Numbered from the stretch's first letter, positions 1 to 61,111 are shown. The stretch: 64,000 nucleotides of DNA from an uncultured virus (IMG/VR IMGVR_UViG_3300042384_001469) (IMGVR_UViG_3300042384_001469); one strand, 5' to 3'. Program-made: numbers and translations. The notes: generated by a model not told the origin, from the sequence alone.

Positions 1-173
1 CCTCAACACAGGGGAGACCACTTTATCCTACTTTCGTAGTTTATTTAAGGACCATACACGGCCCATTATCGTTTATCAGATTAAATGTCTCATAATCAAC
101 CCGAAGGTCTCATAATCAACTACTGAACGGATAATTAATATTACCTATATACTTCAAAGGGGGTATTTAGGTA
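1..173 (-). ncRNA. 5' part of a structured non-coding RNA, continues beyond the left edge; family not identified
   Basis: No ORF in the track. Minus strand has GACC-UUCG-GGUU, CUAC-GAAA-GUAG, GGGCC..GGUCC and UACCUA..UAGGUA stems; it lies directly downstream of tandem promoters and a boxA-like element. Confidence 0.6.
87..120. repeat. 14-bp direct repeat GTCTCATAATCAAC x2 (87-100, 107-120)
   Basis: Read directly; the 6-bp spacer carries the UUCG loop on the minus strand. Confidence 0.9.
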
Positions 174-218
174 TTTTCAAAGAACGTTTCCCCGTTTTAA
201 ATCTCACATTTGAGATTT
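174..218 (-). promoter_or_regulatory. boxA-like antitermination element (CGTTCTTTGAAAA, 186-174) preceded by a hairpin (199-218)
   Basis: Matches the GTTCTTTGAAA boxA form seen in rRNA leaders; AAATCTCA-4nt-TGAGATTT inverted repeat upstream. Confidence 0.55.
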
Positions 219-224
219 GTTTTA

Positions 225-255
225 CAAAGTTACGACATTTTTCTGTTCTTGTCAA
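225..255 (-). promoter_or_regulatory. Promoter P2: TTGACA-N17-TAACTTTG
   Basis: Bacteroidota TAnnTTTG element at 232-225, TTGACA at 255-250. Confidence 0.75.
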
Positions 256-316
256 GTAATTTGTTTTATTTTTTTTGAGACTTGTATCTGAATCGTTACC
301 TATCTCAAATCTTTTA

Positions 317-347
317 CAAACTTACGACATTTTTTTCAAAGTGTCAA
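317..347 (-). promoter_or_regulatory. Promoter P1: TTGACA-N17-TAAGTTTG
   Basis: Same geometry as P2; a 22-bp core (313-334 vs 221-242) is identical except one base. Confidence 0.75.
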
Positions 348-425: not shown

Positions 426-839
426 TTAATTTGCCAAGGCTTTTTTGATAATTTCTTTGAGTTTTGGAGTAATTTTTAAATTATCCACCTCACTTAACCC
501 AAAATAACGGCATTCAGTATGTTCAAACCCATCTTTTGCCTTTTCTAAATTAGGTTTTTTTATTGTTGAAGCCCTTGTATAAAATACATGTAATATAGAT
601 GTTATTACCTTTTTCTTGTTTGAATTAAGAATTGATGTTACATAAGAAACTTCTTGGGGATTCAAAACCAAATAAGTTTCTTCCCTAAATTCTCTTACCG
701 CAGCATCTTTTAAATCTTCCTTAGGATTAACCCCTCCACAAGGAATTGACCAATACCCTTCCAAATGCTCACCCGGAGCTCTTTTACAAAGCAAACACCT
801 ATCTTGATATTTAACTAAAATACCCGCTACGTCTTTCAT
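426..839 (-). CDS. Nudix hydrolase
   Basis: Nudix box GGVNPKEDLKDAAVREFREET. Confidence 0.9.
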   Translation of the reverse strand: MKDVAGILVKYQDRCLLCKRAPGEHLEGYWSIPCGGVNPKEDLKDAAVREFREETYLVLNPQEVSYVTSILNSNKKKVITSILHVFYTRASTIKKPNLEKAKDGFEHTECRYFGLSEVDNLKITPKLKEIIKKALAN

Positions 840-858
840 AATAAGAAATTAAAATTGA

Positions 859-1224
859 TTATTTTAAAGTCAACAAATATTTCAACTTGTTGATTAGACC
901 CATAATTTCATCACGTAAATTTAATAAGTCACTGTCTTTTGTTTTGTCGTACTTATTGTTTAAATCAATTAAAAATTCAATAACAGTGTCACAGAAATGA
1001 GTTGGGTCCAATTCTTTTAAATCAGAAAGTATTAAACTTACTTTCCCTTGGAAATCAGGTCTTCCATGTTTACCCATACAAATTTCAACAAATTCATCAA
1101 TCAAACCGTCTAAATCTCCGTAAACAGTTCCAAAAGCATTGTGTCTAGCGTATGATTTTGTTTGCCAATGATATATTCTAAATTGATTTTGTATTGTCAA
1201 AAGTTCAATAATAACCTGTTCCAT
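859..1224 (-). CDS. Ferritin/Dps-like four-helix protein (DUF5856-like)
   Basis: HWQT..YARHNAFG..Y..LDGLIDEFVE, LLNLRDEI..INKLKYLLTLK; start moved to the ATG at 1224, after a TATTTAT motif. Confidence 0.7.
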   Translation of the reverse strand: MEQVIIELLTIQNQFRIYHWQTKSYARHNAFGTVYGDLDGLIDEFVEICMGKHGRPDFQGKVSLILSDLKELDPTHFCDTVIEFLIDLNNKYDKTKDSDLLNLRDEIMGLINKLKYLLTLK

Positions 1225-1252
1225 AATTCTTTTATTAATAAATATATCATAA

Positions 1253-1284
1253 AATAAAAAACGGAGGTCATTGCCCCCCGTTTT
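1253..1284 (-). terminator. Intrinsic terminator at the end of the methyltransferase gene
   Basis: AAAACGGGGG-caatga-CCTCCGTTTT stem followed by a T run on the minus strand. Confidence 0.65.
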
Positions 1285-2125
1285 CAAATTCTAATTTTTG
1301 TTGTTTCTTTTGGTCAACAAATCCTTGTATTCTTTCTCTAGAAATATTTGCATAATTTTCAGATAATTCAATCCCTACCCATCTTCTATCATTAATCTCG
1401 GCCGCCACACAACTTGTACCACTTCCATTAAATGGGTCTAAAATAATATCATTCTTATAAGATAAAATTTTAATTGCCTTGTTTGGGATATCCATTGAGA
1501 ATGTTGCCTTAGTTAGGGACCTTGTGTCAGCAAAATACTTCCACTGACCAAATACTAACTCCATAAACTCTTTTTTATCTTCATCCTGATAAACCATCTT
1601 GTTCTTACCTTCTTCAGTTACTGTTGGTTCTCCCTTCCATTGTGTTTCACCTTTAACTTTCTTAATATGAACCTTCTTATAAGCCAATACAACACATTCT
1701 TTTGGATTATAGATGTACGGACTAGATGGACTCATCCAACTTCCCCAAGCAGTTGTTTTACTTCTGTGAGGACTATCTTCTTCTAAATCAACTACACCAA
1801 AGAACTTAAACCCAATCTCTTTCATAACCTGATAAACTTCAGATACGAAGAAAATTCTACCTCCCTTTGATTGTCTATTAATCTCATAAGGAATGTTTAA
1901 AGCGATACGTCCATCGTCTTTCAATACTTTATAAGCTTCAGTTAACCATTGTCGGGTAAATTCCAAATATTCACCAATCTCCATGTCATCATTGTGAACA
2001 TCATAAGCGATATTAACACCGTAAGGTGGAGATGTAACAATTAAATCAACCCAACCTTCAGGCATTTCTTTCATCACCTCAATGCAATCTCCGGTAATAA
2101 CTTTATTAATATAATTTTCAATCAT
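1268..2125 (-). CDS. Beta-class N4-cytosine/N6-adenine DNA methyltransferase
   Basis: Motif IV TSPPY N-terminal and motif I DPFNGSGT C-terminal. Confidence 0.92.
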   Translation of the reverse strand: MIENYINKVITGDCIEVMKEMPEGWVDLIVTSPPYGVNIAYDVHNDDMEIGEYLEFTRQWLTEAYKVLKDDGRIALNIPYEINRQSKGGRIFFVSEVYQVMKEIGFKFFGVVDLEEDSPHRSKTTAWGSWMSPSSPYIYNPKECVVLAYKKVHIKKVKGETQWKGEPTVTEEGKNKMVYQDEDKKEFMELVFGQWKYFADTRSLTKATFSMDIPNKAIKILSYKNDIILDPFNGSGTSCVAAEINDRRWVGIELSENYANISRERIQGFVDQKKQQKLEFENGGQ

Positions 2126-2348
2126 TATTTTCTAACTTTTCAATGTGATGTTGTAAATACCAAAGAGCTTTTTTCAAATCTTCCAACTCTTTTTCTTTGT
2201 GTTTTTTACCAGCTCTAGAAATATATTTCACTGTGTTACCTAAACAGAACCCAAGGTCCCAAGCATCAATTACTTTTATTGCTTCATATGGATTTGAGAC
2301 TCCTCCATAGTGTTCAGGGTTATTTACCATTTCTTTTTGTTGCGACAT
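2118..2348 (-). CDS. DUF3310 family phage protein
   Basis: VNNPEHY..EAIKVI..GFCLGNTVKYISRAGKK..EDLKKALWYL. Confidence 0.85.
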   Translation of the reverse strand: MSQQKEMVNNPEHYGGVSNPYEAIKVIDAWDLGFCLGNTVKYISRAGKKHKEKELEDLKKALWYLQHHIEKLENND

Positions 2349-2523
2349 AATATCCTTTTCCATATTCACTTTCTTTAACTAATCCATCCTCAATTAAATT
2401 GTCAATTCTTTCTTTAGTTTCATTTAAACCAACTCTAAGAATATATTCAGAAATATAATTGATATGTATTGGTGTTTCAAGTTTAGCTAACAGAATTTCT
2501 GTCGGAGATGTATTTTTTCTCAT
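2320..2523 (-). CDS. Hypothetical protein, possible winged helix
   Basis: In-operon ORF; LIEDGLVKES..GYYV pattern. Confidence 0.55.
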   Translation of the reverse strand: MRKNTSPTEILLAKLETPIHINYISEYILRVGLNETKERIDNLIEDGLVKESEYGKGYYVATKRNGK

Positions 2524-2659
2524 ATGTTCTAAATTTTTGTTCTACTTCATTAGTGGTAAATAATAAACAATCGGATTTTAAAAAATATCTAATCTCATTC
2601 AAATTTTTACAAATACTGTCTATCTGTAACTCCCCAACAATTTTTTTATTAAAACCCAT
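2483..2659 (-). CDS. Small hypothetical protein (58 aa, MGFNKKIVGE...), below the ORF-track cutoff
   Basis: Translated by hand; TATATTTG promoter at 2671-2664 just upstream; fills the operon gap. Confidence 0.55.
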   Translation of the reverse strand: MGFNKKIVGELQIDSICKNLNEIRYFLKSDCLLFTTNEVEQKFRTYEKKYISDRNSVS

Positions 2660-2671
2660 ATTACAAATATA

Positions 2672-3433
2672 CTACGGATTTTTCAAAACAACAATAGTTT
2701 TAGCTTGCGTAATATATGTAAGTAATTTTCTTTTAAAGACTGGTAATAGTGTGTTTTCTAAAGGTAACTCATTTTTTGATGATAATTCAAACACCGGTAA
2801 TTTATCATCCTCATCTATTTCACGTAGTATTTCAAATACATTTTTTTGACTCACATCTTCATAGATTATGTTAACTCCATTTTTTTTATCAAATCTGACA
2901 ACATCAGAAATTTTAACATTGTATCCCCAAATGTACGTTGTTTCGTTATATACAGTAAAAAAGTAACCCTTTTCGATAGTGTCAAATTTTTCAGTATTAA
3001 TTATATTGATAGATATTGAATCGTAAGTTATTGTCCAAAGTGCTTTAACGATGTTAAAATATTCAAAAATTTTTTGACCACAGTATTTTAAAATTTTATC
3101 AAACTCCTTAATTTCATTATCGGTCATATTAGGAATTGGGTTAAATTTTAAATCAGTTATGAGTATTTCATCATCAACGCTTTTAAATTTTTTATCAATT
3201 GTAATGTATTTTGAGTCATTACTAATTGATTGTAAGTTAGCAAGATGTAATGACATTTCACTAAATAATGGATATAACTCAAATTTATCAATCTGTGAAT
3301 CAGAATATTTAATAAAATCCATTAATTTATAATAGTGATATTCAAAATCAGGAGTGTGTTCGACTATCCACTCAGGATTTAACTTCAAGTGTTTTTTCTT
3401 TCTATTGTATTTCCGTTTGTCGGTTTTTTCCAT
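2672..3433 (-). CDS. Hypothetical protein
   Basis: Long ORF in the minus-strand run. Confidence 0.7.
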   Translation of the reverse strand: MEKTDKRKYNRKKKHLKLNPEWIVEHTPDFEYHYYKLMDFIKYSDSQIDKFELYPLFSEMSLHLANLQSISNDSKYITIDKKFKSVDDEILITDLKFNPIPNMTDNEIKEFDKILKYCGQKIFEYFNIVKALWTITYDSISINIINTEKFDTIEKGYFFTVYNETTYIWGYNVKISDVVRFDKKNGVNIIYEDVSQKNVFEILREIDEDDKLPVFELSSKNELPLENTLLPVFKRKLLTYITQAKTIVVLKNP

Positions 3434-3434
3434 A

Positions 3435-4715
3435 TCAACCATCTATTTGGAAAATATAGTATGTTTCGTTATCAAACTCAACAGTATCTTCTGTACCATC
3501 GTATGAATTAATTGTATTCCCATATCCGTCAGTATCAACAACATCTTTAATTAACGCGCCCATATCAACAAAATCTTGCATATTTAGACCGTAATCTCTA
3601 ATTGTTGTAGCAACATCATAAGTTTTATCCTCCAACAAACTCTCAACCTTTTCTTCAATCAAATTTTCAGGTATAGTTTTATCACTATCTTTTAACTCGT
3701 CCAACTCTTCATTTAATTCGTCATATTGTTCTTGTGATAAGTTCTCAGAATCTTCCAACATTTCAGTAATCTCATCAATTCTTTGTTGGACTTCTGAGTC
3801 AGAATATTCAAAATCATCTTCATCAAAGAAATCTTCTAAATTTTCTCTAACATAATCTTCCTCACTTTCTCTAAAGTAATTTTTCAATTCTTCTTCATCA
3901 ATATGATTCTCAACAAATCCTGTTCTAAATCCTTCCAGTCCGACATCATCAATTAAGTTTTCAACTGTTTTATATGCCGTTTTTTCAGTATAATATTCAT
4001 CACCAACCGCCCATGTTGCACGACTCTCACCATCACTCTCTAAAACTTTGAATGAATGTAAGAAATAATGTTTACCTTCGTAGATAATATCATAAATGTC
4101 AATACGACCTTCAATTTCTTCTATTTCGATGTCAATCGCTCTAAGTTCTGTTAGATTCTCATCATCTTCCGTCTCTTTCTCTATTTGTTCTCTTCTTTCT
4201 TTTTCAGCGTAAAGGTCCTCTAATCTTTGTGTATCTTCAGGTGTTTTCTCTTCATATACAGTTGATATTAAAAAATTAAATAATGCTAATGTGCATTTAT
4301 CAACATCAGATAAATCTCCCCTTTCTTCAAAATAACCTTCCTCTCTTCTATCATTCTGAACCTCCTTTCTTCTTTGGAATTCTTGATAGATTTCTTGTTT
4401 TTTAAGAGGTGTATTATAATATGATATGTAATTAGCAATAACTCCTTGTTTAGTTCTTAGCTGACTGTAATTCGCATCAACACTACCATTAACAGTAATA
4501 TTACCTAAATAAGTTGTATCACTTGGTAGTTTTATATTACCGTCAATAACAATTTGTTTTCCTTTATATTTTTTCAAATTATTAATTCTTCTTCCGTCAT
4601 GGTCAACAAAATTCATTAACTCAATATATTTCTCAGGTGTTAAATGTACAATATCATTTTCAGATTCTAAAACCAGTTCTTTAATGAATTTTTTTATTAA
4701 GTTTCTACTATTCAT
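3435..4715 (-). CDS. Highly acidic hypothetical protein, possible virion/internal protein
   Basis: 426-aa D/E-rich ORF; TATTTAT upstream; N-terminal LIKKFIKELVLE. Confidence 0.7.
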   Translation of the reverse strand: MNSRNLIKKFIKELVLESENDIVHLTPEKYIELMNFVDHDGRRINNLKKYKGKQIVIDGNIKLPSDTTYLGNITVNGSVDANYSQLRTKQGVIANYISYYNTPLKKQEIYQEFQRRKEVQNDRREEGYFEERGDLSDVDKCTLALFNFLISTVYEEKTPEDTQRLEDLYAEKERREQIEKETEDDENLTELRAIDIEIEEIEGRIDIYDIIYEGKHYFLHSFKVLESDGESRATWAVGDEYYTEKTAYKTVENLIDDVGLEGFRTGFVENHIDEEELKNYFRESEEDYVRENLEDFFDEDDFEYSDSEVQQRIDEITEMLEDSENLSQEQYDELNEELDELKDSDKTIPENLIEEKVESLLEDKTYDVATTIRDYGLNMQDFVDMGALIKDVVDTDGYGNTINSYDGTEDTVEFDNETYYIFQIDG

Positions 4716-4809
4716 ATTAAATAAATACTGTTAAATTAATAACTATTTCCTTTTAATATTTCAATTAATAATATTTATAAAAAAGAATAAATCTAAAAAA
4801 AATAAAAAT

Positions 4810-4944
4810 ATGGGCTGTGGCTGTAAAAACAAACAAAATCCTGAACAACAGGTTAAAATTCAACAAGTTCAACAACAAAATGAAAGTGTACAAAATGCAG
4901 TAAAAAAAACTATTGAAAAATTTTATAAAAACAAACAGCAATAA
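4810..4944 (+). CDS. 44-aa Gln-rich peptide starting MGCGCK
   Basis: Hand translation MGCGCKNKQNPEQQVKIQQVQQQNESVQNAVKKTIEKFYKNKQQ; TATTTAT at 4772-4778. Confidence 0.6.
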   Translation: MGCGCKNKQNPEQQVKIQQVQQQNESVQNAVKKTIEKFYKNKQQ

Positions 4945-4982
4945 AATATTTATAGATAATAAACTTTTAAAAAAATAATACT

Positions 4983-5033
4983 ATGAAAAACGGTGGTGGT
5001 AATAACGGTGGTGGATGTGGTTGTGGTAAATAA
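4983..5033 (+). CDS. 16-aa Gly/Cys micropeptide MKNGGGNNGGGCGCGK
   Basis: G-rich in-frame island in AT-rich DNA; TATTTAT at 4947-4953; terminator downstream. Confidence 0.45.
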   Translation: MKNGGGNNGGGCGCGK

Positions 5034-5062
5034 TCAATCCAAATCTATTAATTAAAGAATTT

Positions 5063-5088
5063 AAAAGGGAGAATATTCTCCCTTTTTT
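5063..5088 (+). terminator. Intrinsic terminator
   Basis: AAAAGGGAGAAT/ATTCTCCCTTTT inverted repeat plus T run. Confidence 0.75.
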
Positions 5089-5101
5089 AATATTTATAAC
5101 T

Positions 5102-6427
5102 ATGGAATTAAAAATGGGTGATACAATTTACATCAAAGGGTTCATAAATGAAGACCCTGAATTTCATTGCTGGAAACACATGAAAGACTTAATAGGGTTT
5201 CCAACAAAAGTTTGTCTAATTAGAAATAGTAAAATATATGTTACCCACCCAATTTTAGATGTAGTCAATTTTAATGAAGATTGTGTTAATTATGAAATTA
5301 TTGATAGCGGTAATTTAATACACAATAAAAAATTAAATGAAGAAGAACAAGAAGAACTTAAATTAAATAAAGTTCAAGAAAAATTACTTAGAATCCTTAA
5401 TAAATTTCAAAATGGGGACATCGATGTTGATTTTATTGAAAATGCAATAGGTGGTATAGATAAATTTTTTAATTTATTAACAAAAAACAATCTTCTTGGT
5501 TACATTGACCCTTTTTCAAGTGATTGGGATGATTACCAAAATCAATTATTTTATTTATTCTATGAAAACGATAGTTCATTTGTTTGGACAATAGTTGATA
5601 AATTTATTTCAGATGTTACAAAAATTGGTAACGATTATTATTTTGACACATCCCCTGCGGAACTTTCAGGTTTCTTTGAAACAGGTTATCGCAGTGAAAT
5701 GAGTAGAGATACGATTGAAAGTATTTTACAAGGTGAACATGATATGAATTTTTGGGATGTGACTGATGATGTTTATAGGGACGTATATACTGAATTAAAA
5801 AATGAAAATAAACAATTGGTTAATGAAAGAATTGTATTAGAACTTAGAGATATGAAAACAATAGGTACCGACACCGAATTACTTAAAGAAATTGCTCGGG
5901 AACAAGGTCGTAATGACGTTGAGTTAACCGATGATGTTATTTCTCGAGTACTTGGTGACGATGATACCATTGAATATCTAATCAATAAAGAATTATATGA
6001 TGTTAGAAGTGATTTATATAGTTTATACCAGGGTTGTTATGAAGGAGTATTAACTGAAGAATGGTATAAAAGTTTAATGGGGGAACTAATTGGTTCTGTA
6101 ATTGATAATGGTGAAATAGATGACTATTCATACAAAAAACAATCTTTCGATAAAGATGGTAATAAAGTATCAAGAACATTTTACGGAACAAGATACAAAG
6201 CAACAAACTGTATATATAATGTTGTTTCAGAATGGTTAAACGATAACAAAGATTGTAATGGTACTTATTGCGATACAATCATATATTTTGGTAGTTACGA
6301 AAGATTATATTCAGATTTAATTGATGATGGTGGTCGTGATTTATTGAGAGTTCCAAGATTAGACGAATATCCCGACCATAGGAAAGTTGATAGTTGTGTT
6401 AACGGAAATATCGGAGATTACTTTTAA
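5102..6427 (+). CDS. Acidic hypothetical protein
   Basis: 441-aa ORF; TATTTAT at 5091-5097. Confidence 0.7.
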   Translation: MELKMGDTIYIKGFINEDPEFHCWKHMKDLIGFPTKVCLIRNSKIYVTHPILDVVNFNEDCVNYEIIDSGNLIHNKKLNEEEQEELKLNKVQEKLLRILNKFQNGDIDVDFIENAIGGIDKFFNLLTKNNLLGYIDPFSSDWDDYQNQLFYLFYENDSSFVWTIVDKFISDVTKIGNDYYFDTSPAELSGFFETGYRSEMSRDTIESILQGEHDMNFWDVTDDVYRDVYTELKNENKQLVNERIVLELRDMKTIGTDTELLKEIAREQGRNDVELTDDVISRVLGDDDTIEYLINKELYDVRSDLYSLYQGCYEGVLTEEWYKSLMGELIGSVIDNGEIDDYSYKKQSFDKDGNKVSRTFYGTRYKATNCIYNVVSEWLNDNKDCNGTYCDTIIYFGSYERLYSDLIDDGGRDLLRVPRLDEYPDHRKVDSCVNGNIGDYF

Positions 6428-17895: not shown

Positions 17896-18711
17896 ATGAA
17901 GAAAATATTTTTTAACGCATCATTACCAAGAGCAGGGTCAACATTAATTCAAAACATATTAATGCAAAATCCTGAAATTTATTCAACACCAACTTCAGGA
18001 GTGATTGAGCTACTTTTACAAGCTAGAACCATATATACAACAGGTGACGCATTTAAAGCACAAAATCCTGATGAAATGAGAGAGGGATTAAAAAGTTTTT
18101 GTGAAAAAGGTTTAACGGGTTTTTTCGATAACATAACTGATAGACCCTATGTTATTGATAAGAGTAGAGCGTGGATAGGTAACTATCATTTCTTAAAGTG
18201 GTTTTACGGGACACCTAAAATTATTTGTATGGTTAGGGACCTAAGGGCAATTTTCTCTTCAATGGAAAAAAACTATAGAAAAAATTCACATAAAGACCCT
18301 CTATTAGTAAATGTCAATGAATTAAAAAATATGACAACAACATCAAGAGTTGACCATTTTTCAATATCTCCCCCAATTGGTCCATCATTAGAATGGTTAT
18401 TTGAGTCAATTCACCAAGGATATGACAAAGATATTCTTTTTGTTAGATTTGAAGACCTAACATCAAATCCTGATAAAGAGTTAAAACGGATTTACGATTA
18501 TTTGGAGATACCTTTTTATCAACACGACTTTAATAATATTGAGCAGTTAACTATTGAAAATGATGTCATACACGGAATTTTTGGTGACCACTCAATAAAA
18601 AATACATTATCTCAACCAAAAGAAGATTATAACGAAATATTAGGTGCTGATAATAGTAATAGATTATACGAACACTATAATTGGTTCTTCAATAAATTTA
18701 ATTATAAATAA
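17896..18711 (+). CDS. PAPS-dependent sulfotransferase (paralog 1)
   Basis: 5'-PSB loop SLPRAGSTL, DKSR, 3'-PB VRDLRAIFSS, RFEDL. Confidence 0.88.
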   Translation: MKKIFFNASLPRAGSTLIQNILMQNPEIYSTPTSGVIELLLQARTIYTTGDAFKAQNPDEMREGLKSFCEKGLTGFFDNITDRPYVIDKSRAWIGNYHFLKWFYGTPKIICMVRDLRAIFSSMEKNYRKNSHKDPLLVNVNELKNMTTTSRVDHFSISPPIGPSLEWLFESIHQGYDKDILFVRFEDLTSNPDKELKRIYDYLEIPFYQHDFNNIEQLTIENDVIHGIFGDHSIKNTLSQPKEDYNEILGADNSNRLYEHYNWFFNKFNYK

Positions 18712-21595: not shown

Positions 21596-21739
21596 ATGAT
21601 ACAAAATACTCCAAAATGTAAAGCATGTGCAAAAATCAACGATTATAAACCATGGTTAATAATGTTTCAATTATTCAGTTTATCCATGTTTATATGGGGT
21701 TGTGTTGAATGTACAAAATGGATTTTATCCTTCTTTTAA
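21596..21739 (+). CDS. 47-aa membrane peptide with two CxxC motifs
   Basis: Hand translation [47 protein letters not shown]. Confidence 0.5.
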
Positions 21740-22654
21740 TTTTTTGTATTTAAAATTAAATTTTATATACAAGTCACTAACTTCTCTGTAAAAACCTTTA
21801 CCTTTAACCCGTAAAGGTTTTTTTGTTTCTAAATCAATCGGAAAATCAATTTGTAAATTTCCGTTAGGATGTGGAATGGTAATTTTATCATCGTTAAGAT
21901 TTTCGATAGTAAAATCATAGTTATAAACTAAATCAGGTCCTATTTTCTCGAAGTTATTTTCAGGGACAACCTCAACTTTAAATAATAAATCACCGTATGA
22001 ACCATTAGCATAGTCACCACCTCCATGTGATTTAAAGAAAGTACCGTCATCAACTCCACTTGGTAACTCAATATCGATGTTTTGCATTTTTACCATAGTT
22101 GTATTACCATTACAAGAATAACAAGCCTTAGTGTATTTAAAACCTTTACCGTTACAAGCCTGACAAGTAGTTTTATGTACAGTTTGGAAAAATCCATTCC
22201 CAACTCTCTGTATGAAAAACCCTTGTCCCTGACACGATTTACAGTTTTCTTTGTCCCCACCAGTACCATAACAAACATCACATTTGTCATGTCTCATATA
22301 GTTAACTTTTTTTCTTCCACCTTTATACGCCTCAAAAATACCAACTTTTAAATTAACAATTTTATCGGGATTTTTTCTTTGAGCTCCCCCCATGTTATTA
22401 AACATATTTGAAAACATACTGAATGGGTCAAAACCATCCCCTCCACCACCAAATGGATTGTTTCTCTGTGAATCATACTGTTGTTTTTTTTCAGAGTCAC
22501 CTAAGGTCTCATACGCTTCGGAAATTTTTTTAAATGTTTCCTCATTCCCACCTTTATCAGGATGGTGTTGTACTGCTAATTTTTTATAAGCCTTTTTAAT
22601 ATCTTCTTGTGTGGAATTTTCTGAAACTCCTAAAACATTATAATAATTCTCCAT
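21725..22654 (-). CDS. dnaJ: DnaJ chaperone
   Basis: J domain HHPDK, G/F region, CxxCxGxG zinc repeats, C-terminal domain. Confidence 0.93.
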
Positions 22655-29977: not shown

Positions 29978-30778
29978 TCAGATATAATCGAACAACGATG
30001 AACTCTCATTACGTAACTTACGTAGAGCCTTTTCTTTAATCTGTCTAACTCTTTCTTTAGTTAGATTGAAATCTGAACCGATATCCTCTAATGTTCTAGG
30101 TGTACCTGAAATTCCATAATAGTCCTCAACAATTTGTTTTTCTCTTTCATCTAATATGTTTAGTATATTAACTAAACCATCTCGTAATTGTTGTGAAGTA
30201 TTGAATACTTCGTCAGGTCTCATAGAATCCTTATTCTCAATCAAATCAATTAAAGTATCCCCCTCTTCATTGATTTGAGTCTCTAAGTTAATAGTGTATG
30301 GTAAGTTGGCGAATTTATCCTCCATTCTACCGTCAGTTTTTTCAACTCTCTTTTTTTCTTTATGTAGGTCTTGAACAACGTTAACGGGTATACGAATAGT
30401 TCGTGAATGTTCGTTAAGAGACTGTAGAATTGATTGTCTAACCCACCAAACTGCGTAAGAAATAAATCTTAAATTTTTAGACCAATCAAAATTATTCAGA
30501 GCTTTCATCAATCCAATATTACCTTCCGCAACCAAATCAGGAAAATCAACTCCTTGATTTTGGTACTGTTTTGCAACTGTAATGACAAAACGTAAATTAC
30601 CTTCTAAAATTTCCTTCTTAATTGACTCTTTTTGTTTTTCTGAAATGTTTTCAGATTGCATTATTTTTGATAACTCCCTTTCTCTTTCAGGTGTCATCAC
30701 TTTAATTTTCCTAATGTCTTTTAAGTAAAAACTAACTTCGTCTTGATTAATTGGAATTACAGATTGTTTATTTATCAT
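29978..30778 (-). CDS. RNA polymerase sigma-70 factor, RpoD/SigA family lacking region 1.1
   Basis: YLKDI, NLRFVITVAKQYQNQG, DLVAEGNIGLMKA, RFISYAVWWVRQSI, TLEDIG..LTKERVRQIKEKALRKLR. Confidence 0.93.
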   Translation of the reverse strand: MINKQSVIPINQDEVSFYLKDIRKIKVMTPERERELSKIMQSENISEKQKESIKKEILEGNLRFVITVAKQYQNQGVDFPDLVAEGNIGLMKALNNFDWSKNLRFISYAVWWVRQSILQSLNEHSRTIRIPVNVVQDLHKEKKRVEKTDGRMEDKFANLPYTINLETQINEEGDTLIDLIENKDSMRPDEVFNTSQQLRDGLVNILNILDEREKQIVEDYYGISGTPRTLEDIGSDFNLTKERVRQIKEKALRKLRNESSSLFDYI

Positions 30779-30785
30779 GTTTAAT

Positions 30786-31307
30786 TTATTTTGAGTATTC
30801 ATTTAATAATTTGATTTCGTTTTCAGTTAATGAGTCAATACCTGATTCATTTATCTTGTCCAATAATTGGTCCAAAGTAGGTACTTCAACAGGTATTGTC
30901 TGTGGTTTAAATAATACACTAAACAGTTTTTCCATAGAATCACTGATATCACTATCCCCAAACTTAGGTATGTCAGTCATATCAATTGTAAAATTTGTGA
31001 CTTTATTGTCTGACTTTTTGTCAGTTTCACCAAATAAATGACTATGAATGTCCTCATCCATAGAAAGAATCATATTATCATTTACAGGAAAAACAAAAAA
31101 CATTGCGGTCAATTTAGTTATTGATTCTTCAAAAAATTTACTAATTCCATCAGTATCCAATGAAGTTTCAAAGTTAACTATTATCCCAGCGTCTCCATAT
31201 TGGTACCTTACGTCTTTTTTAGATATTTGTGAGACACAATCAATTATTAATTTAATGTGAGGCTCAGTTTCCTTGTAATCCCCAAAAGCAAAAAGTATAT
31301 ATTCCAT
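30786..31307 (-). CDS. Hypothetical protein
   Basis: C-terminal LDQLLDKINESGIDSLTENE; TATATTTG at 31328-31321. Confidence 0.65.
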   Translation of the reverse strand: MEYILFAFGDYKETEPHIKLIIDCVSQISKKDVRYQYGDAGIIVNFETSLDTDGISKFFEESITKLTAMFFVFPVNDNMILSMDEDIHSHLFGETDKKSDNKVTNFTIDMTDIPKFGDSDISDSMEKLFSVLFKPQTIPVEVPTLDQLLDKINESGIDSLTENEIKLLNEYSK

Positions 31308-45329: not shown

Positions 45330-47303
45330 TTACCCTCCAAAAAATTGTTGACCTAAATTAACTGAAACTTGAACTATGTCATTACCTATCGATACTGTTG
45401 AACAAGGTGCGTTATAAAGTTTTATGTTTCTTAATTGGTATTTCAATAAGTATTCATACTTTTTATTACAAGGAAATACACCATTTGGTTTATTACCTAT
45501 TAGTATTGAATGATTGAATGATAAATCGTATGTATCGGTACTAATCATTTGTAGACCATTATACATATCAACATCTAATACAATTGTTTTACCTGATAGG
45601 GCTCCTTTACATCCCGCTAATGGGAAATTAGTAATACTCTGAGGTTGTACCACAGGTGTCTGTAATATTGAATTTTTTTCAACTGAATTACTTGTTCCCC
45701 AATTATAATAGTCTGAAGAATTATATTGAGGTGATTGGGTTATTTGACTTGTAAAACTTAAATCAAATTCAACAATAACACCGCTAGGTAATGATGGAGT
45801 GATTGTAATTTGTGCTAATCTACCATTTGTAATAGTTGTAGTATATATCGAAGATGGATTAGATGTCCAATTTGTAGTTGTGTAGTTCCCTGTTGGGTTA
45901 CCAACAAAATTAACACTTATAACATAATTTTGATTTGCAATTTGTGGTACTGTTACACCAACATTAGATGTATTACTGTTATTATCCATAACATACAACG
46001 TGTAATTTCCTGATACCAAATTATTAAATAATGGAGAATTTTGATAAGTAATGTTATCAATTGAATATGTATACGGTGAAGAACCTCCGTTCGCAGTTGA
46101 TAAAATACTTCCATTGTTAGTACACGCACCGTTAGCCGTATATGTCAATGCCAATGGTTGAGACGAACAAGTACCCTCAGTTACTATAACTGGTCCATTT
46201 ACTGTATTTCCAGCACCTAAGAATGTCCAACCATTATTAGGTATCGATGACGTTGTTGTTGTCCTTAATTGAGGAGTTTGGCTACCACACATTACTAATC
46301 CAATGAATTCCCAATAACTACCATTATGTAATATGAAATATTGTCCATCTTCAGAAATCCAAGAGTAATGAGAATTGTATGTTCCATTATTAATAAATGT
46401 AATCAAATATGACTGTTCACAGTATGTAAATGACATACATAGATTTGGAATTACAGGATTACTTCCCACACTTCTTGATGGAGTCATAGTTGGCGTAGTG
46501 GTAGGAGTAGTGGTCGGTGTAGGTGTCGGAGCATAAAATCCACAAGTAGTTGTGGATGAGAAATCTCCGTAATAATCTGTAACCACCGCAGTATAAAATC
46601 CATAACTAACATTATTTAAAGTTTGTGAAGTTTGACCATTAGACCACTGTATTGTATATGGTGGTGTACCTCCTGTTATAAATAAAGATAATATACCGTC
46701 ACTTGATGTTGAGGTACTTGGTTCTTGAACTGTCTGACATTGTACCTCCATTGGATAAATGGTAATAATATCACATTCATTTCTACCTGTAATACGTAAA
46801 CTTGCGGTTATTTCAGGATATGGAGTTCTAGATACTGAAACAGTTGGTGTTATTGTCGGAGTGACCGACATTGTAGGTGTGACAGTTGGAGTTCTTGTAA
46901 CAGTTGGGGTCGGTGTAAATCCCATACTTTTAGTTGGGGTAGCCGTTCTTGTTGGTGTTGGAGTTTTTGTTTTTGTTGGTGTTGGAGTTTTTGTTTTGGT
47001 AGGGGTTAAAGTAGGAGTTCTTGTAACCGTAGGTGTTGGGGTTGGGGATGTTGCACAACAAAATCCAGGAGCTTCGGAACAATTATTAAGTCCATTTAAA
47101 ACTATTTCCGCAGTATCCGCACCATAATCATAACCTGAAGATGATGGACCTATTAAATTTTCAATTACAAAACAAAAACTTGGTCCTTCAACAGTATTAA
47201 TATACCACATCTCACCAACCTGTCCTCCACTTGGCATGTTGATGATATATTGAGCTCCGTCACAACAACTAACAACTAAATAATTATATGGTGGTACAAA
47301 CAT
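45330..47303 (-). CDS. Virion surface protein with Cys-Cys module, Pro/Thr linkers and SprB-like repeats
   Basis: GGTPPYTIQWSNGQT..YTAVVTD; GGSSPYTYSID..GNYTLYVMD. Confidence 0.7.
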   Translation of the reverse strand: MFVPPYNYLVVSCCDGAQYIINMPSGGQVGEMWYINTVEGPSFCFVIENLIGPSSSGYDYGADTAEIVLNGLNNCSEAPGFCCATSPTPTPTVTRTPTLTPTKTKTPTPTKTKTPTPTRTATPTKSMGFTPTPTVTRTPTVTPTMSVTPTITPTVSVSRTPYPEITASLRITGRNECDIITIYPMEVQCQTVQEPSTSTSSDGILSLFITGGTPPYTIQWSNGQTSQTLNNVSYGFYTAVVTDYYGDFSSTTTCGFYAPTPTPTTTPTTTPTMTPSRSVGSNPVIPNLCMSFTYCEQSYLITFINNGTYNSHYSWISEDGQYFILHNGSYWEFIGLVMCGSQTPQLRTTTTSSIPNNGWTFLGAGNTVNGPVIVTEGTCSSQPLALTYTANGACTNNGSILSTANGGSSPYTYSIDNITYQNSPLFNNLVSGNYTLYVMDNNSNTSNVGVTVPQIANQNYVISVNFVGNPTGNYTTTNWTSNPSSIYTTTITNGRLAQITITPSLPSGVIVEFDLSFTSQITQSPQYNSSDYYNWGTSNSVEKNSILQTPVVQPQSITNFPLAGCKGALSGKTIVLDVDMYNGLQMISTDTYDLSFNHSILIGNKPNGVFPCNKKYEYLLKYQLRNIKLYNAPCSTVSIGNDIVQVSVNLGQQFFGG

Positions 47304-49746: not shown

Positions 49747-50571
49747 CTACATATTTTTAGGGTACTTAAAAATCTCGTTATACCACCCATAATTATTATA
49801 AATCCAATCACAAATATCTGAACCTAAAATTTTTTGAGCATCCGATGGTAATAACTCTAAAGTCTTTTTTATCTTATGGTCCCCAAAAATACCATACACT
49901 TCATCATCTTCTTTTGTTATTTGTTCAATGTTTTCAAAATCATGTTCAAAATAAGGTATTTCAAAATATTCATAAATTTTTCTCATGATTAAATCGGGAT
50001 ACAAACATAAATCCTCATACTTAACAAACATCATATTTTCATTAATACCTTGTCTGAAAATTTCTTGTAGTCTTTCAATCGCCATACCAACAGGTTGTGA
50101 GTTTGCCCATATGTCTATTCTTTTAGGTGTTGATGTTCCTTTCAAATCCGAATGATTTACAATCCCAAAATCTTTGTGCTGATTTTTTCTAAAGTTTTTT
50201 TCCATAGAGGTATAGATATCTCTAAGGTCTCTCACCATACAAACAACTTTTGGTTTATCAACAATTTGTTGTAAAAATCCATAATGGACACCCCATCCTC
50301 TACTTTTATCAACCACATATTTTTTATCAGTAATACTTTCATAAAAACCAGTTAACCCCTCTTTACAAAAAGATAAAAATGCGTTTTTCATAAGTTCAGG
50401 GTCCTGAGCTTTGAATTCAGGTGAATTACTATAGTTTGCTCTAGCCGCGTACACTAACTCTAAAACACCACTTGTTGGTGTTGCGTATATGTCAGGGTTT
50501 TGAGCTAAAATGTTTTGTAGTAGAGTACTACCTGCTCGTGGTAGTGAACTCTGAAAAAATAATCTTTCCAT
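49747..50571 (-). CDS. PAPS-dependent sulfotransferase (paralog 2)
   Basis: SSLPRAGSTL, DKSRGW, VRDLRDIYTSMEK, KYEDL. Confidence 0.88.
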   Translation of the reverse strand: MERLFFQSSLPRAGSTLLQNILAQNPDIYATPTSGVLELVYAARANYSNSPEFKAQDPELMKNAFLSFCKEGLTGFYESITDKKYVVDKSRGWGVHYGFLQQIVDKPKVVCMVRDLRDIYTSMEKNFRKNQHKDFGIVNHSDLKGTSTPKRIDIWANSQPVGMAIERLQEIFRQGINENMMFVKYEDLCLYPDLIMRKIYEYFEIPYFEHDFENIEQITKEDDEVYGIFGDHKIKKTLELLPSDAQKILGSDICDWIYNNYGWYNEIFKYPKNM

Positions 50572-50573
50572 TT

Positions 50574-50960
50574 TTAATATATTTTTTTTACTGATTCCCA
50601 ATATTCTTTTTTTCCATATGATGTACAAATTTCTTCACCTGGCTCAATATCTTTAACCGCAATAAAATAATACATTCCATTATCTGAATCACATGTCCAT
50701 GTTGCATTATTATCATCACTATGATTGTAAATACACCCATACCCAAGAGGTATTGCGTACTTTATTGGAGATGCCCCACAAGGATATGAGAAACGATATT
50801 TTAGTAATATATCATCGTTTGACCCTAAATCTGTTTTGAAAAAAATTGAATAACAGGTTTCAATTATTTCATCTTTTAATATTTTTTCAATCGCGAAAAC
50901 CCCAAATCCGTGAATTGGGGACGATTTCACTTCAATTTTATTTGGTATCGGGATGTTCAT
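50574..50960 (-). CDS. SET-domain protein-lysine methyltransferase
   Basis: SPIHGFGVFA, YNHSDDNN, DIEPGEEICTSYG. Confidence 0.88.
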   Translation of the reverse strand: MNIPIPNKIEVKSSPIHGFGVFAIEKILKDEIIETCYSIFFKTDLGSNDDILLKYRFSYPCGASPIKYAIPLGYGCIYNHSDDNNATWTCDSDNGMYYFIAVKDIEPGEEICTSYGKKEYWESVKKIY

Positions 50961-51865: not shown

Positions 51866-54800
51866 TTATTGTGAAGATGAATTTTTAAGTAATTCAATTT
51901 CTTTTTCAAGTTTTTCAACTCTTAATATTGTTTCTTGTAATGATTTAACTGTTAGAGATAAAATACCATCATAATCTAGTCCGTATGTTCCGTCTTCTTT
52001 TTCACCATCGCCAAGCACTAATTCAGGGTATGCAATAAGTACATCTTGTGCTACAAAACCGTGTCTTGTTGTACCACTATAATCTTTATATTCAAATTTA
52101 ACAGGTTTTAGATTTAAAATATGTGGTGTGATTTCATCATTAATATACTGAACATTTATTTTTCTTCTTAAATCGGATGTTCCACCTCCTGGTGTACTTA
52201 ATACTCCGGCATCCGTAAGTGAGAGTATAATTGTACCATAAGTGCTGTTAACGACTTCAAGTCCTCCTGTACCATTCACTCTAAAAGTTTTATTTGGGTT
52301 TGTTGCACCTCCTGAGTTATTGGTAACTCTAATAAAATCTATGTAACTAGCGCCTCCGACTGTTCCACTTCCACAAAATGTGGTTAACGCTCCTACGGAA
52401 CTACCGCTTATAGTTATACTTCCTTTTGTTCCTGAAATAGTACCAACAGAACCGCTAAAACTTGGAGAGTTAACTGAAGTGGTTCCACAAAAATTATTAG
52501 AATAGAATGTACATGCCACAGAAGCGGTTAATCCACATCCAGCAGCGAATGAAAAATTAGACGACACAGTATTTCCACTACCTCCAACAATACCACTAAA
52601 TTGACCTGTAACCGAATTACACCCTCCTCCACCAACAAATGAATTTAAATTAGATATCCTATTACAGAATCCACCATTAATTACTGAACAATCACTACCT
52701 GAAGTAACCGCATTACAAATACCACCACCAATAAATGAGTATGAAGTATGACCAGAATTATTAGCACCTCCTAAAACAGATGTTGAGAATAAACAAGAAA
52801 TATTATTTAAACCTCCTCCTAATACTGAATAACACCCATTTGATATCCCTTGATACCCCCCTCCTAAAAACGCAAAGTCACAACACGCAGAATTTTTAAA
52901 CCCTCCACCAATTGTCGTACTTTGTCCTGAAATAACATTACATTGTCCTCCACCAATAAAAGAATAAGAACAACAACTTCTATTACATTGTCCTCCACCA
53001 ATAAATGACCAAGCACCTATTGTACAATTTAATTCACCTCCAACTACAGTAACATAATTACCTGTAAGTCCTGAGTTTCTAAGACCACCACCTATAAATC
53101 CTGCAACACTTGAATTAGTATTCAAACATCCCCCGCCAATAGTTGAATATTTACTACTTGAGGTGTTACCACATCCTCCTAAAACCGCACTATAACCTCC
53201 AGAAACAGTATTTGAAATCCCACCTAAAATAGATGAATAAGAACCAGTATTAATAGTATTCCCTCTTCCACCAACAATTGAAGAATAGCTTGATGATACT
53301 GTGTTACAAGCTCCCGCACCAATAAATGATGTCCCACCACTATTAGAGTTACAACTTCCAGCACCTATAAATGAATTACCTCCTGAACCAATATTACAAC
53401 ATCCTCCAACAACAGTAATTAAAAATGTAGAAACGTTAGCACTTATAATATTACAACACCCACCACCAATAAATGAAGATGGTCTTGAAACTATATTATT
53501 TCTATTACCACTTACAATAGTAGAATAACAACCACTATTAGTATTACCACTTCCAACAAGTATTGAGCCGTAATATGCTAAATTACAAATACAGTTACCA
53601 ATTCCATTAACAACAGTTGAGTAACACGCATTTAATGTATTACCACTACCATTACCCACAAATGACCAATCAGCATTGTTATAATTACAATAACCGTTAA
53701 CAACCGTTGACCCGCTTCCTGTCGTATTATTTTGAAATCCATTTCCAATAAATGAAAAAGTTCCTGATGATTGAGTTACAGCACCTGATGGTGAAAATAC
53801 TAAATTGTTCCAATCAGGTGTACCTCCACAAGTTCCGTTACCAAAACCACTACCAATAAATGACCAAACACCTGTCAAATTTTTAGCTGCCCCACATATT
53901 CTGTTTGATGTCCCTCCACCAATAAACGAATGAGATGAAAAACAAATAATATTACTATTTCCATTTATTATTGATGTATAACCCGACGTTGTAACATTAT
54001 TATGACCTCCCATAACATGACTACCATTACCAACAAAACCGTAAGTCACATTATTAATCTGATGTCCAAATCCATTAATAACAGTGGTCGCGTAACTACC
54101 ACAAACAAAACTATTAGTACCTCCAATAATTTGATTATAAGAACATCCTTTATCATTACCATCAATAATTTGAGAGCAATTGGTGTTCATTTGTAATGAA
54201 AAAGTATTACGCCAAATACAAGATGATGTTGAATTACCGATTAAATTTGAGTCCCCACAAATCCATCCCCCACATTTACCAACGTTTCCATTATTACTTA
54301 TTATTGTTGAGTGTGAACCACATATAATACTTCCCCCATAGGTAAATCCTTTACCGGCATTAATAATTGCGGAATAATTACCACTTATAGTATTAGAGTT
54401 ACCATTACCTATATAAGAGCTACACCCCGAAACAATATTGTTATAACCATTAGAAATGAATGACCCTGTTGTGTTTGCTGATAATGTATTACCACTACCA
54501 TTACCTATAAATGAGTATGTTGACGTATTAATTGTATTACCACTACCATTAATAATACTTGAAAAACAAGAGGTTTTACCACATATGTTATTCAAACATC
54601 CATTAGTGATGGTGTTAAAAGAAGCTCCTTGTGATAAATTACATATACCATTAATTACACTACCATATCTTGATGAGACAGTATTACCAATACCGTTACC
54701 AATTAATGATGAAACAGACGATGAGGTATTTCCGGTACCATTAATAATTGAACCATAGATATTACTAGCGGTATTGTTCCTACCACCCCCTATAAAACTA

Positions 54801-58903: not shown

Positions 58904-61111
58904 TTATGATTGACAATCAATGTCGTATTCTATTTTTAAATCAATAGTTATGTTTAAGTCTTGTAATATATCATAACTTAAATTACAATCTGAAGATATT
59001 ACGACAATGTTCATAGAAGAATCAATAATAACATTCCCTACACCATAAGCACCGTTTAATGATGATTGTATTGCACTTATAAATAAATCGTCAGTCGGAG
59101 CATTAGTTAAAGAATTAGATGTATAAAATTGGGTGGCATACACTTGAGAACCCAATGTCACCTCAACAATAAAATTGGCATAATTTAAAATACAATTTGA
59201 CCCATTAGTCAAATCTAAGTATCCTTCATTATACATTTGTATTATTCCTCTTTTTTGATTTGAGGTTTCGGTAAAAGTCTGTTGACAAATGTTAAAAACT
59301 TGATAAGAAGAACTAACTAAACTACCACAACTTACTGAGACTGTTTTAGTTAAAACACAACCATTATTATCTGTTAAAGTTAAACTATATAAATCACTAG
59401 TTAATCCTGTTAAATAAATGCCTTCCTGAGTACCAATAGAGATAAACCCATCGATAGTACTTGCGCTCCAATAAAAATCAAATGGTGGGATTCCTGAATT
59501 TATAATTGCACTTGCAGTACCTTGAGCACCTGTACCACATCCTGTCGAATACAAATCAAAATTAACTTCAGATTGATTTGTTAAAACGCTTGTTGCCGTT
59601 TGTGTACATCCACTTTCATCCGTAACAACAATTGAATAGACTCCAGTTGTAAGTGAACTAAAAGTATATGAAGTGTCATTTGTCGGTCCATAACTTTCAA
59701 TACCCACTAACTCATATGTAAAAGTTGTAGAATTTATTGGTGTGATATCAACCGTTATAAATCCGTTATCAGAATTACAAGTAGTATCAATTGAACTAAC
59801 ATTAATTATAAAGTCATTTGATTGTTCAATAGTGTAGGTATCGGTGTATTCACAACTTCCTAAATAATCAGAAATAGTTAACGTGTATGTATCGGCAGTT
59901 AAATTTGTAAACTGATAATTGTTTACTTGTGTAATAACAGTATTTGAAATACCATTACTATCCTCTAATGTATATGTAAATGGTGAGTTACCTATTAAAT
60001 TAACTGATAATGAACCATATGATGTACATGTCACATTGTTTGTAACAACAGATATCACATTAAAATTACCCTCCATTGGGACTTGTATATCTTGTGAAAA
60101 ATTACAAAGAGCCAAATCAACTATTTGTACTGTATATGTGTTAGCAGCTAAGCCTGAAAAAGTATACGTCGTAGAATAACTTATTGCCGAGTCACCATTT
60201 GATAGTATGTAATAATACGGAGGAGTACCTCCTGAAATATTTAATGTCACAGTACCATCATTTGAGAGACAAGATGCTTGTGTGGATGTATAAAAATTTA
60301 ACCCTAAAGGCGGTACTGTATTAATTATTGCGGATTTAGTTACTTGACATCCAGTTGAGTCCGTAACTATCACACTATAACTACCCGCGGACAATCCACT
60401 AACAGTAGTTGCAGTAATACTTGCGTTCGGTACATTTGACGACCATTCGTACAAAAATGGAGGTTGTCCTGTATTACCAGTAATAGTAAGTTTTCCGTAT
60501 CCATTATTACATGATGAAGCATTCGCAACAAGTAACCCAAAATCAAACTCTGAAGAATTTCTTATAATACAAGTTTGACTTGAACACTGACATCCACCAT
60601 AATCAAAAAGTGTTACCTGATATGTTCCGGCAGATAACCCATCAAAAAATGCCGAAGTTGAAACTTGAGGATTTGAATATAAGGGTGGAGGTGCCTCTTG
60701 AGTCACAACAGTAGTTAGAGCACTTGTAACATACACACCTTCTCGATATAAATAAACTGTACCATACGAAGGAGCGTAAGCGGTAGTGGCCGTTAATGAA
60801 CCATTAGGTAAATTACATGTAGTATCTTGAACATCTATTGAAACACAACATCCTGTGTTAATATAAAAATTAATGTTAGTTGTGTTATTTACCGGAATTG
60901 ATTGGTCACTTACATAAAAACTATAAGACCCTCCTGATAATGAAGTTATCGTAGTTGCACTACCAACCAATACAATTGGTGATAATGCAGGTGATAACCA
61001 TGTTATAGTATAATTAGGGGTACCTCCAAAAATTGTAAGTCCAACCGCACCTGATGAATTGCTTTGACAGTCACCTGTGATTTGTAATTCATAATTTAAC
61101 GTTATCGCCAT
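58904..61111 (-). CDS. SprB-like repeat structural protein
   Basis: Repeated GGTP(N/P)Y..W/Y..GLSAGSYSVIVTDSTGC units. Confidence 0.75.
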   Translation of the reverse strand: MAITLNYELQITGDCQSNSSGAVGLTIFGGTPNYTITWLSPALSPIVLVGSATTITSLSGGSYSFYVSDQSIPVNNTTNINFYINTGCCVSIDVQDTTCNLPNGSLTATTAYAPSYGTVYLYREGVYVTSALTTVVTQEAPPPLYSNPQVSTSAFFDGLSAGTYQVTLFDYGGCQCSSQTCIIRNSSEFDFGLLVANASSCNNGYGKLTITGNTGQPPFLYEWSSNVPNASITATTVSGLSAGSYSVIVTDSTGCQVTKSAIINTVPPLGLNFYTSTQASCLSNDGTVTLNISGGTPPYYYILSNGDSAISYSTTYTFSGLAANTYTVQIVDLALCNFSQDIQVPMEGNFNVISVVTNNVTCTSYGSLSVNLIGNSPFTYTLEDSNGISNTVITQVNNYQFTNLTADTYTLTISDYLGSCEYTDTYTIEQSNDFIINVSSIDTTCNSDNGFITVDITPINSTTFTYELVGIESYGPTNDTSYTFSSLTTGVYSIVVTDESGCTQTATSVLTNQSEVNFDLYSTGCGTGAQGTASAIINSGIPPFDFYWSASTIDGFISIGTQEGIYLTGLTSDLYSLTLTDNNGCVLTKTVSVSCGSLVSSSYQVFNICQQTFTETSNQKRGIIQMYNEGYLDLTNGSNCILNYANFIVEVTLGSQVYATQFYTSNSLTNAPTDDLFISAIQSSLNGAYGVGNVIIDSSMNIVVISSDCNLSYDILQDLNITIDLKIEYDIDCQS

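Follow-up and report, generated by a model that had tools for sequence, protein, structure and literature searches.

A GOLLD RNA gene head with an rRNA-operon-style leader in a large freshwater phage

The DNA analysed here is a stretch of 64 000 nt from an uncultured virus (IMGVR_UViG_3300042384_001469), referred to below as the window, and the locus of interest occupies its first 347 positions. Transcription of this locus runs leftwards and exits at window position 1, because all of its features lie on the minus strand. Positions 1–425 contain no ORF of at least 60 aa, and the genes found at 426–4715 share the strand of the RNA gene. The features of the locus, listed in Table 1, consist of two promoter-like sites, a hairpin behind each of them, a boxA-like motif and a structured segment which is cut at the window edge.

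Table 1. Features of the locus in the order of transcription (window positions)
Feature	Position	Strand	Description
P1, upstream promoter-like site	317..347	(-)	TTGACA 347-342, 17-nt spacer, TAAGTTTG 324-317
Hairpin behind P1	274..309	(-)	TTTGAGA 309-303 and TCTCAAA 280-274; then an A-run just upstream of P2
P2, proximal promoter-like site	225..255	(-)	TTGACA 255-250, 17-nt spacer, TAACTTTG 232-225
Leader hairpin, boxB position	199..218	(-)	AAATCTCA-AATG-TGAGATTT, after P2
boxA-like motif GTTCTTTGAAAA	174..185	(-)	core 9-mer GTTCTTTGA
Extra hairpin TACCTA...TAGGTA	142..173	(-)	only in this phage's variant; most relatives have ~10 nt there
Closing stem around variable insert	66..134	(-)	TTATCCGTTCAG 134-123 pairs with CTGATAAACGATAA 79-66
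UUCG loop	108-99	(-)	inside the insert of the closing stem
GAAA hairpin CTACGAAAGTAG	39-28	(-)	in the conserved core of the 5' domain
Start of conserved 5'-domain core	1..65	(-)	GGGCCGTGTATGGTCC, TTAAATAAAC, GAAA hairpin, GGATAAAGTG, 5' arm of the next helix; cut at the window edge

The initial annotation of this DNA had proposed two near-identical promoters 92 bp apart, each followed by a hairpin, then a boxA-like motif, UUCG and GAAA hairpins and a longer stem, and all of these elements were found again. P1 and P2 lie 92 nt from each other and have a 20-mer in common (AATGTCGTAASTTTGTAAAA) which occurs twice in the 64 kb against 0.04 copies expected; two or more copies were obtained in none of 100 shuffled sequences. 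The composite TTGAC-N16-19-TANNTTTG likewise matches P1 and P2 and nothing else in the window (0.52 expected), a result which is weak when taken alone since at least two matches appeared in 8 of 100 shuffles. Neither site was listed by a sigma-70 consensus scan of the window, because both have TAnnTTTG instead of TATAAT as their second element; the form TTG... / TAnnTTTG is what we take to be the Bacteroidota promoter consensus. The hairpin behind P1 has a folding energy of -11 kcal/mol (z = -4.95), which was equalled in 0 of 200 shuffles, and its stem becomes GATTTAAC/GTTAAATC in relatives. The boxA-like motif is unpaired in a single-sequence fold of the window RNA. Its core 9-mer is present once in the window, at chance level (1.03 expected); what gives it weight is that relatives conserve it and that 16S leaders also contain it, and the case for a boxA is built on position and conservation rather than on the number of copies. 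We also observed a 14-nt direct repeat, GTTGATTATGAGAC, at 120-107 and 100-87 of the minus strand, which flanks the UUCG loop and is kept with small changes in several relatives.

What RNA is made from this locus had been left unidentified by the initial annotation, in which GOLLD was one of several families named for an Infernal/Rfam check. Searching the whole window against Rfam at gathering scores gave 0 matches, and a search of locus L001 with E-values up to 10 gave chance-level matches only. The nearest record (G001) reaches 118 nt past window position 1 and has no GOLLD match. An exact 28-mer taken from the window edge was then used as a query, which led to 17 viral loci. Among these, L003 shares the gene order of the window and 99.94% identity with it across 5028 nt, and positions 5367–5760 of L003 match the GOLLD family (RF02032) with 317.6 bits (E = 6.5e-91) over model positions 1–416 of 416. 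With the RF02032 gathering score of 150 bits as the threshold for membership, L003 and 14 more of the 17 loci pass (15/17 in all); the other 2 end too early. Given this match in a near-identical sequence, the window part corresponds to the promoter region, the leader and the start of the 5' domain of a GOLLD gene. The window itself has no Rfam match because it ends ~220 nt into the transcript and the diagnostic GOLLD 3' domain lies beyond position 1. Window positions 347-1 on the minus strand are thus almost certainly the control region and the first ~220 nt of the GOLLD RNA gene of a large freshwater phage, in line with the large phage non-coding RNA that had been put forward as one of two options.

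The other option was the leader of a tRNA array, and the case that had been named as a refutation was the 5' UTR of an ordinary coding gene; for either, the gene would have to begin just past the window. That Rfam finds nothing within the window itself is compatible with both. In L003, however, what occupies the gene-free gap (4604–5823) is the GOLLD RNA, together with a terminator-like hairpin that has a T-run, and the single ORF of at least 50 aa in this gap is on the opposite strand. No tRNA was detected in the 10 kb of L003 or in the window. We consider an origin of this kind very improbable, and for L003 both the 5' UTR and the tRNA-array leader are refuted. As judged from L003, the transcript body extends ~770 nt past the window edge and comprises a covarying 5' domain, the conserved GOLLD 3' domain and the terminator-like hairpin with its T-run.

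All of the relatives that we gathered come from viral contigs, and the 5'-domain anchor pattern gave 0 matches when run against bacterial genome contigs. GOLLD is also present in the 634 780-bp phage record LR745206.1 (287.3 bits), and a tRNA-Met adjoins it in this record as well as in G004 and G006. Several individual loci showed features of their own. One viral contig (L010/L282) carries a GOLLD copy with an internal deletion of ~230 nt, which scores 175.6 bits only. Another (L029 and L011/L064) has two GOLLD genes ~16.5 kb apart, with scores of 311.9 and 322 bits; L029 adjoins a phage tmRNA gene (112.5 bits), and a tmRNA is found beside GOLLD in L296 too. In L232, a Pistol ribozyme match (RF02679, 69.4 bits, positions 837–912, minus strand) lies a few hundred nucleotides from a divergent GOLLD (197.9 bits). 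Finally, LR745206.1 (L002) has a tRNA-like element of ~96 nt repeated either side of GOLLD (~3000-2905 and 1808-1710, minus strand); ARAGORN does not call it, and it may be a tRNA with an insert.

Covariation across related phages had been suggested as a check on the proposed structure, and it is found. RNAalifold applied to 69 distinct relatives predicted 54 pairs, of which 34 show changes on both sides; in the GAAA hairpin, for example, 52 sequences have a UA pair where 17 have CG. No pairs were predicted in the leader or in the closing stem of the MAFFT alignment, because MAFFT scattered the variable parts, and per-sequence folds were used instead for these regions. By this approach the closing stem is kept in 53 of the 56 leaders that could be tested: its outer helix is TTATC/GATAA in 35 and the compensated ATATC/GATAT in 6, and variants of its inner helix include TCAG/CTGA, TCTCT/AGAGA, CAAGT/ACTTG and TCGA/TCGA, while the insert that it encloses is replaced by unrelated sequence in relatives. 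A fold of -3 kcal/mol or better is found in the 36 nt upstream of the boxA-like motif in 60 of 71 distinct leaders. Here as well the hairpin is kept while its stem varies, with at least 8 stem sequences (among them TCGGA/TCCGA, TCAGGA/TCCTGA, CTTGGT/ACCAAG and GTTACTC/GAGTAAC). The window portion is structured RNA and forms part of a 5' domain distinct from, and less conserved than, the GOLLD 3' domain that follows it.

A second check that had been suggested, coverage in metatranscriptomes, also came out positive. Parts of the locus are contained in 22 runs recorded as RNA, all from freshwater or river metatranscriptomes. In 4 out of 4 metatranscriptome runs, from 4 studies, contigs map to L003 ~4908–5773, which includes the part equivalent to window ~121-1; being contigs, they report presence in RNA libraries only and carry no 5' ends, strand or level. 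The summed word depth reaches 34 127 on the L003 body and is far lower over the leader (4834–4927), a drop that may equally reflect sequence variation between strains; the many joints among the mapped contigs are probably due to related strains. The flanking protein genes (L003 3800–4645 and 5774–6600) are without RNA contigs, but uncovered parts carry no evidential weight. One low-depth RNA contig begins further upstream than the expected transcription starts, at L003 4681.

This last contig is one of the points in favour of a reading in which P1 and P2 are not working promoters, the RNA being made either by read-through from the gene block at 426–4715 or from a promoter specific to the phage, which its own sigma factor (29978–30802) would recognise. 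The upstream genes are on the same strand, no terminator-like site is seen between the NUDIX gene (426–839) and P1, and a sigma-70 family protein is encoded by the phage. The distribution of the promoter-like sites among relatives argues against such an arrangement. P2 was defined in relatives as nTTG-N19-23-TAnnTTT[GA] within 85 nt of the motif, and among the 70 distinct leaders with 300 nt of upstream sequence a site of this form is present in 51. All 51 have an A-tract of at least 6 nt within 35 nt upstream of P2, and 40 of them have a second promoter-like site further upstream, at a spacing of 86–112 nt in 31 cases. The second element of P2 ends 25–28 nt before GTTCTTTGA in 50 of 71 leaders. 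In those relatives where a tRNA takes the place of the promoter, a promoter of the same form is found further upstream, and the TTG... / TAnnTTTG form also precedes the motif in bacterial 16S leaders (see below). Taken together, these data make it unlikely that P1 and P2 are inactive, and tandem promoters for the GOLLD gene are the reading that we retain.

The conservation of the boxA-like motif was analysed on relatives gathered in two independent ways, through a 5'-domain anchor (74 loci) and through a 3'-domain pattern (80 loci). The first set gave 44 distinct upstream regions; in 43 of them there is exactly one copy of GTTCTTTGA, placed 61–133 nt ahead of the anchor, and the remaining one has GTTCTTTAA instead. 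In the second set, G[CT]TCTTT[AG]A was found on the RNA strand in 42 of the 51 distinct loci with at least 805 nt of upstream sequence, in 40 cases at -682 to -780, whereas the opposite strand, used as a control, gave 5 matches in total for all 59 distinct loci. Nine loci lack the motif. Five of these are not recognised as GOLLD by Rfam, which was run on 20 of the 80 loci; two (L230 and L299) have it with one mismatch, GTTCTTAGAA, and the remaining two are the most divergent GOLLDs. Because of its absence from the divergent but true GOLLDs L227 (212.5 bits) and L232 (197.9 bits), we attribute the motif to this clade and do not extend it to the whole GOLLD family. Loci L257, L262, L273, L279 and L292 were rejected as GOLLD, being false positives of the 3'-domain pattern that are negative in Rfam; a brief look for an Actinobacteria-type boxA in the three high-GC loci among them (L257, L262 and L279) found none.

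The cassette is not confined to GOLLD. The complete 293 850-bp record G004 has the same arrangement of promoter, hairpin and GTTCTTTGAAAAA ~190 nt before an array of 5 tRNAs, and in LR745206.1 a hairpin with GTTCTTTGAA stands before a tRNA-like gene and recurs after the tRNA-Met, before the GOLLD 5' domain. Across five large related phage records GTTCTTTGAA has 18 matches versus 15 for a reversed control, most of them inside ORFs; it is therefore not enriched genome-wide, and only few of its copies can be functional. In G004 (L101 and L109) GTTCTTTGAA was also seen just after promoter-like sites before two protein-coding genes, which could be due to chance or to the use of boxA on mRNAs.

For comparison with host sequences, 80 metagenome 16S loci were selected solely on the presence of the primer 27F and CF319a probe targets, and the 500 nt upstream were examined; the Bacteroidota label of these loci depends on the CF319a probe sequence and on the promoter consensus. 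The exact 9-mer GTTCTTTGA was found upstream of 16S in 30 of the 80 loci and a one-mismatch form in 31 more, mostly 84–170 nt before the 27F site, against 0 exact and 1–7 one-mismatch occurrences for each of five control 9-mers in the same loci. All 33 such 16S sites have TAnnTTTG no more than 120 nt ahead of the motif, and in 22 of the 33 a hairpin lies in the 36 nt before the motif. The motif agrees with the gamma-proteobacterial boxA consensus GYTCTTTAANA (PMC5725501) at 10 of 11 positions. Since the motif occurs beyond GOLLD and in 16S leaders, and is close to the consensus, the comparison with rRNA operons stands on data. The leader is rRNA-operon-style, clade-wide and common to tRNA arrays; the P1/P2-hairpin-boxA layout seen by the initial annotation in a single sequence is conserved in relatives.

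In bacteria, rRNA operons are headed by tandem P1 and P2 promoters and a boxB-boxA-boxC leader on which NusA, NusB, NusE/S10, NusG, SuhB and S4 form an antitermination complex; in the E. coli rrn leader the single-stranded motif follows the hairpin. The phage leader resembles these in its tandem promoters, in the A-rich tract before the proximal one and in the hairpin-then-motif order, and its 9-mer is identical to one upstream of Bacteroidota-type 16S genes. The resemblance extends to rrn spacers, where boxA recurs, as does the module after the internal tRNA in LR745206.1. It differs in that the product is a phage non-coding RNA and not rRNA, and no equivalent of boxC was identified in the leader. 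The nut sites of lambda have boxA ahead of boxB, to which the N protein of the phage binds. Here too a phage carries a host-type boxA on its own transcript, but the hairpin precedes the motif, as in rrn, and the target is a stable RNA and not an mRNA operon.

On the basis of these sequence features, Nus-dependent antitermination is probably the function of the leader, and it is the reading of it that we regard as most likely. Transcription would start at two tandem promoters of Bacteroidota type (TTG... / TAnnTTTG), the proximal one preceded by an A-tract. Some 25–30 nt from its start, the P2 transcript would present a hairpin and an unpaired GTTCTTTGAAA as the hairpin-boxA module of the rRNA operons of the host phylum, and this module would recruit the host NusB-S10 (Nus factor) complex. 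The polymerase could then transcribe ~1 kb of highly folded RNA that is not translated while escaping termination by Rho, as in rRNA synthesis, and Nus loading may also aid the folding of the RNA during its synthesis. We counted against a mechanism involving Rho and Nus factors that the GOLLD gene ends in an intrinsic-terminator-like hairpin. For the explanation as a whole (GOLLD gene head, tandem promoters and Nus mechanism) we estimate a probability of roughly 0.6.

The motif could have another role at the head of the same GOLLD gene: it might be a processing or maturation signal that pre-rRNA and pre-tRNA also carry, take part in the fold or in cage contacts, or make an abundant phage RNA act as a decoy that pulls NusB-S10 off the rRNA operons of the host. 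Its invariance at the 5' edge of a structured RNA in nearly all relatives would fit such a role, and so would its position before stable RNAs that need trimming (tRNA arrays and tRNA-like genes) and the low depth of RNA contigs over the leader, for which strain variation is an equally possible cause. On the other hand, binding of NusB-S10 is the only established bacterial role of this class of motif in rRNA leaders (PMC3177189, PMC4807359). In addition, the motif is unpaired in the fold, an unsystematic look noticed no conserved complement in the RNA, and a role in the cage leaves the cassette before the tRNA array unexplained. We view these other roles as possible and clearly less probable than the loading of Nus factors on the leader. 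A literature search for the motif string returned primers and unrelated matches only, and in the accessible part of the literature naming both GOLLD and antitermination, a search with most subscription journals outside its range, no link is made between the two.

GOLLD, one of the largest non-coding RNAs of bacteria and phages, has no known function and assembles from 14 subunits into a cage made of RNA only; cage assembly is described for env-38 and for a Streptococcus agalactiae GOLLD (10.1101/2024.12.08.627333; PMC12990946). The RNA described here resembles env-38 (Kretsch et al., 10.1101/2024.12.08.627333) in the full-length 3'-domain match in L003, in its separate and less conserved 5' domain, in its phage origin, in the tRNAs found beside or within it in relatives and in its lake or freshwater sources. 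In L003 it measures ~990 nt between the P2 start and the terminator-like hairpin, versus 833 nt given there for the env-38 RNA (10.1101/2024.12.08.627333). The env-38 cage was seen by cryo-EM as a 14-mer (10.1101/2024.12.08.627333). The family is often found beside tRNAs, but the copy of this phage has no tRNA nearby. Tandem promoters and a hairpin-boxA leader have no mention in the portions of the GOLLD literature compared. ROOL is another large structured phage RNA which is described there as cage-forming, of unknown function and often near tRNAs (10.1101/2024.12.08.627333); its sequence and fold are unrelated to those of GOLLD, and Rfam searches for ROOL gave no match in the window or in any locus examined.

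The window encodes tail-fibre-like, primase-like and sigma-factor proteins, and its host is probably a member of the Bacteroidota because of the promoter form TTG... / TAnnTTTG, the SprB repeats in two large proteins and the motif of the 16S leaders. Bacillota also use a similar boxA, so the motif alone leaves the phylum unfixed. The two large SprB-repeat proteins and a 1974-aa protein ending in a Peptidase_S74 chaperone domain (45330–47303, 58904–61111 and 51866–57790, all on the minus strand) have the appearance of tail fibres or adhesins, a hint that the host belongs to the Bacteroidota. Some further genes are worth recording. The sigma-70 family protein (29978–30802, minus strand; 274 aa, with regions 1.2, 2 and 4) could read phage promoters, possibly P1 and P2. 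A full-length DnaJ-type chaperone with a J domain, a CXXCXGXG zinc domain and a C-terminal domain is encoded at 21725–22654 (minus strand); the sole relative found in genome contigs was a 48%-identical J domain from Pseudoduganella. Two sulfotransferase-family genes lie at 17896–18711 (plus strand) and 49747–50628 (minus strand), and a terminator-like hairpin with a T-run (1257–1285, minus strand) overlaps the start of a DUF5856 ORF and the end of a methylase ORF.

The GOLLD family itself was known, and the leader leaves the nature of this RNA unchanged; what is notable is the presence of an rRNA-style leader at the head of the GOLLD gene across a clade of freshwater phages. A further-reaching scenario, which we hold to be improbable, is that the host rRNA machinery makes GOLLD, that the Nus complex aids the folding of the cage subunits and that abundant boxA transcripts divert NusB-S10 from the rRNA operons of the host; if true, this would tie GOLLD to phage takeover of ribosome synthesis. 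Beyond this phage, the 80 16S leaders yield a candidate boxA for Bacteroidota which should be of use elsewhere. The leader also groups GOLLD and tRNA arrays into a single class of 'stable RNA' transcription units in large phages, and its rRNA-style layout provides a concrete and testable account of how GOLLD reaches high levels.
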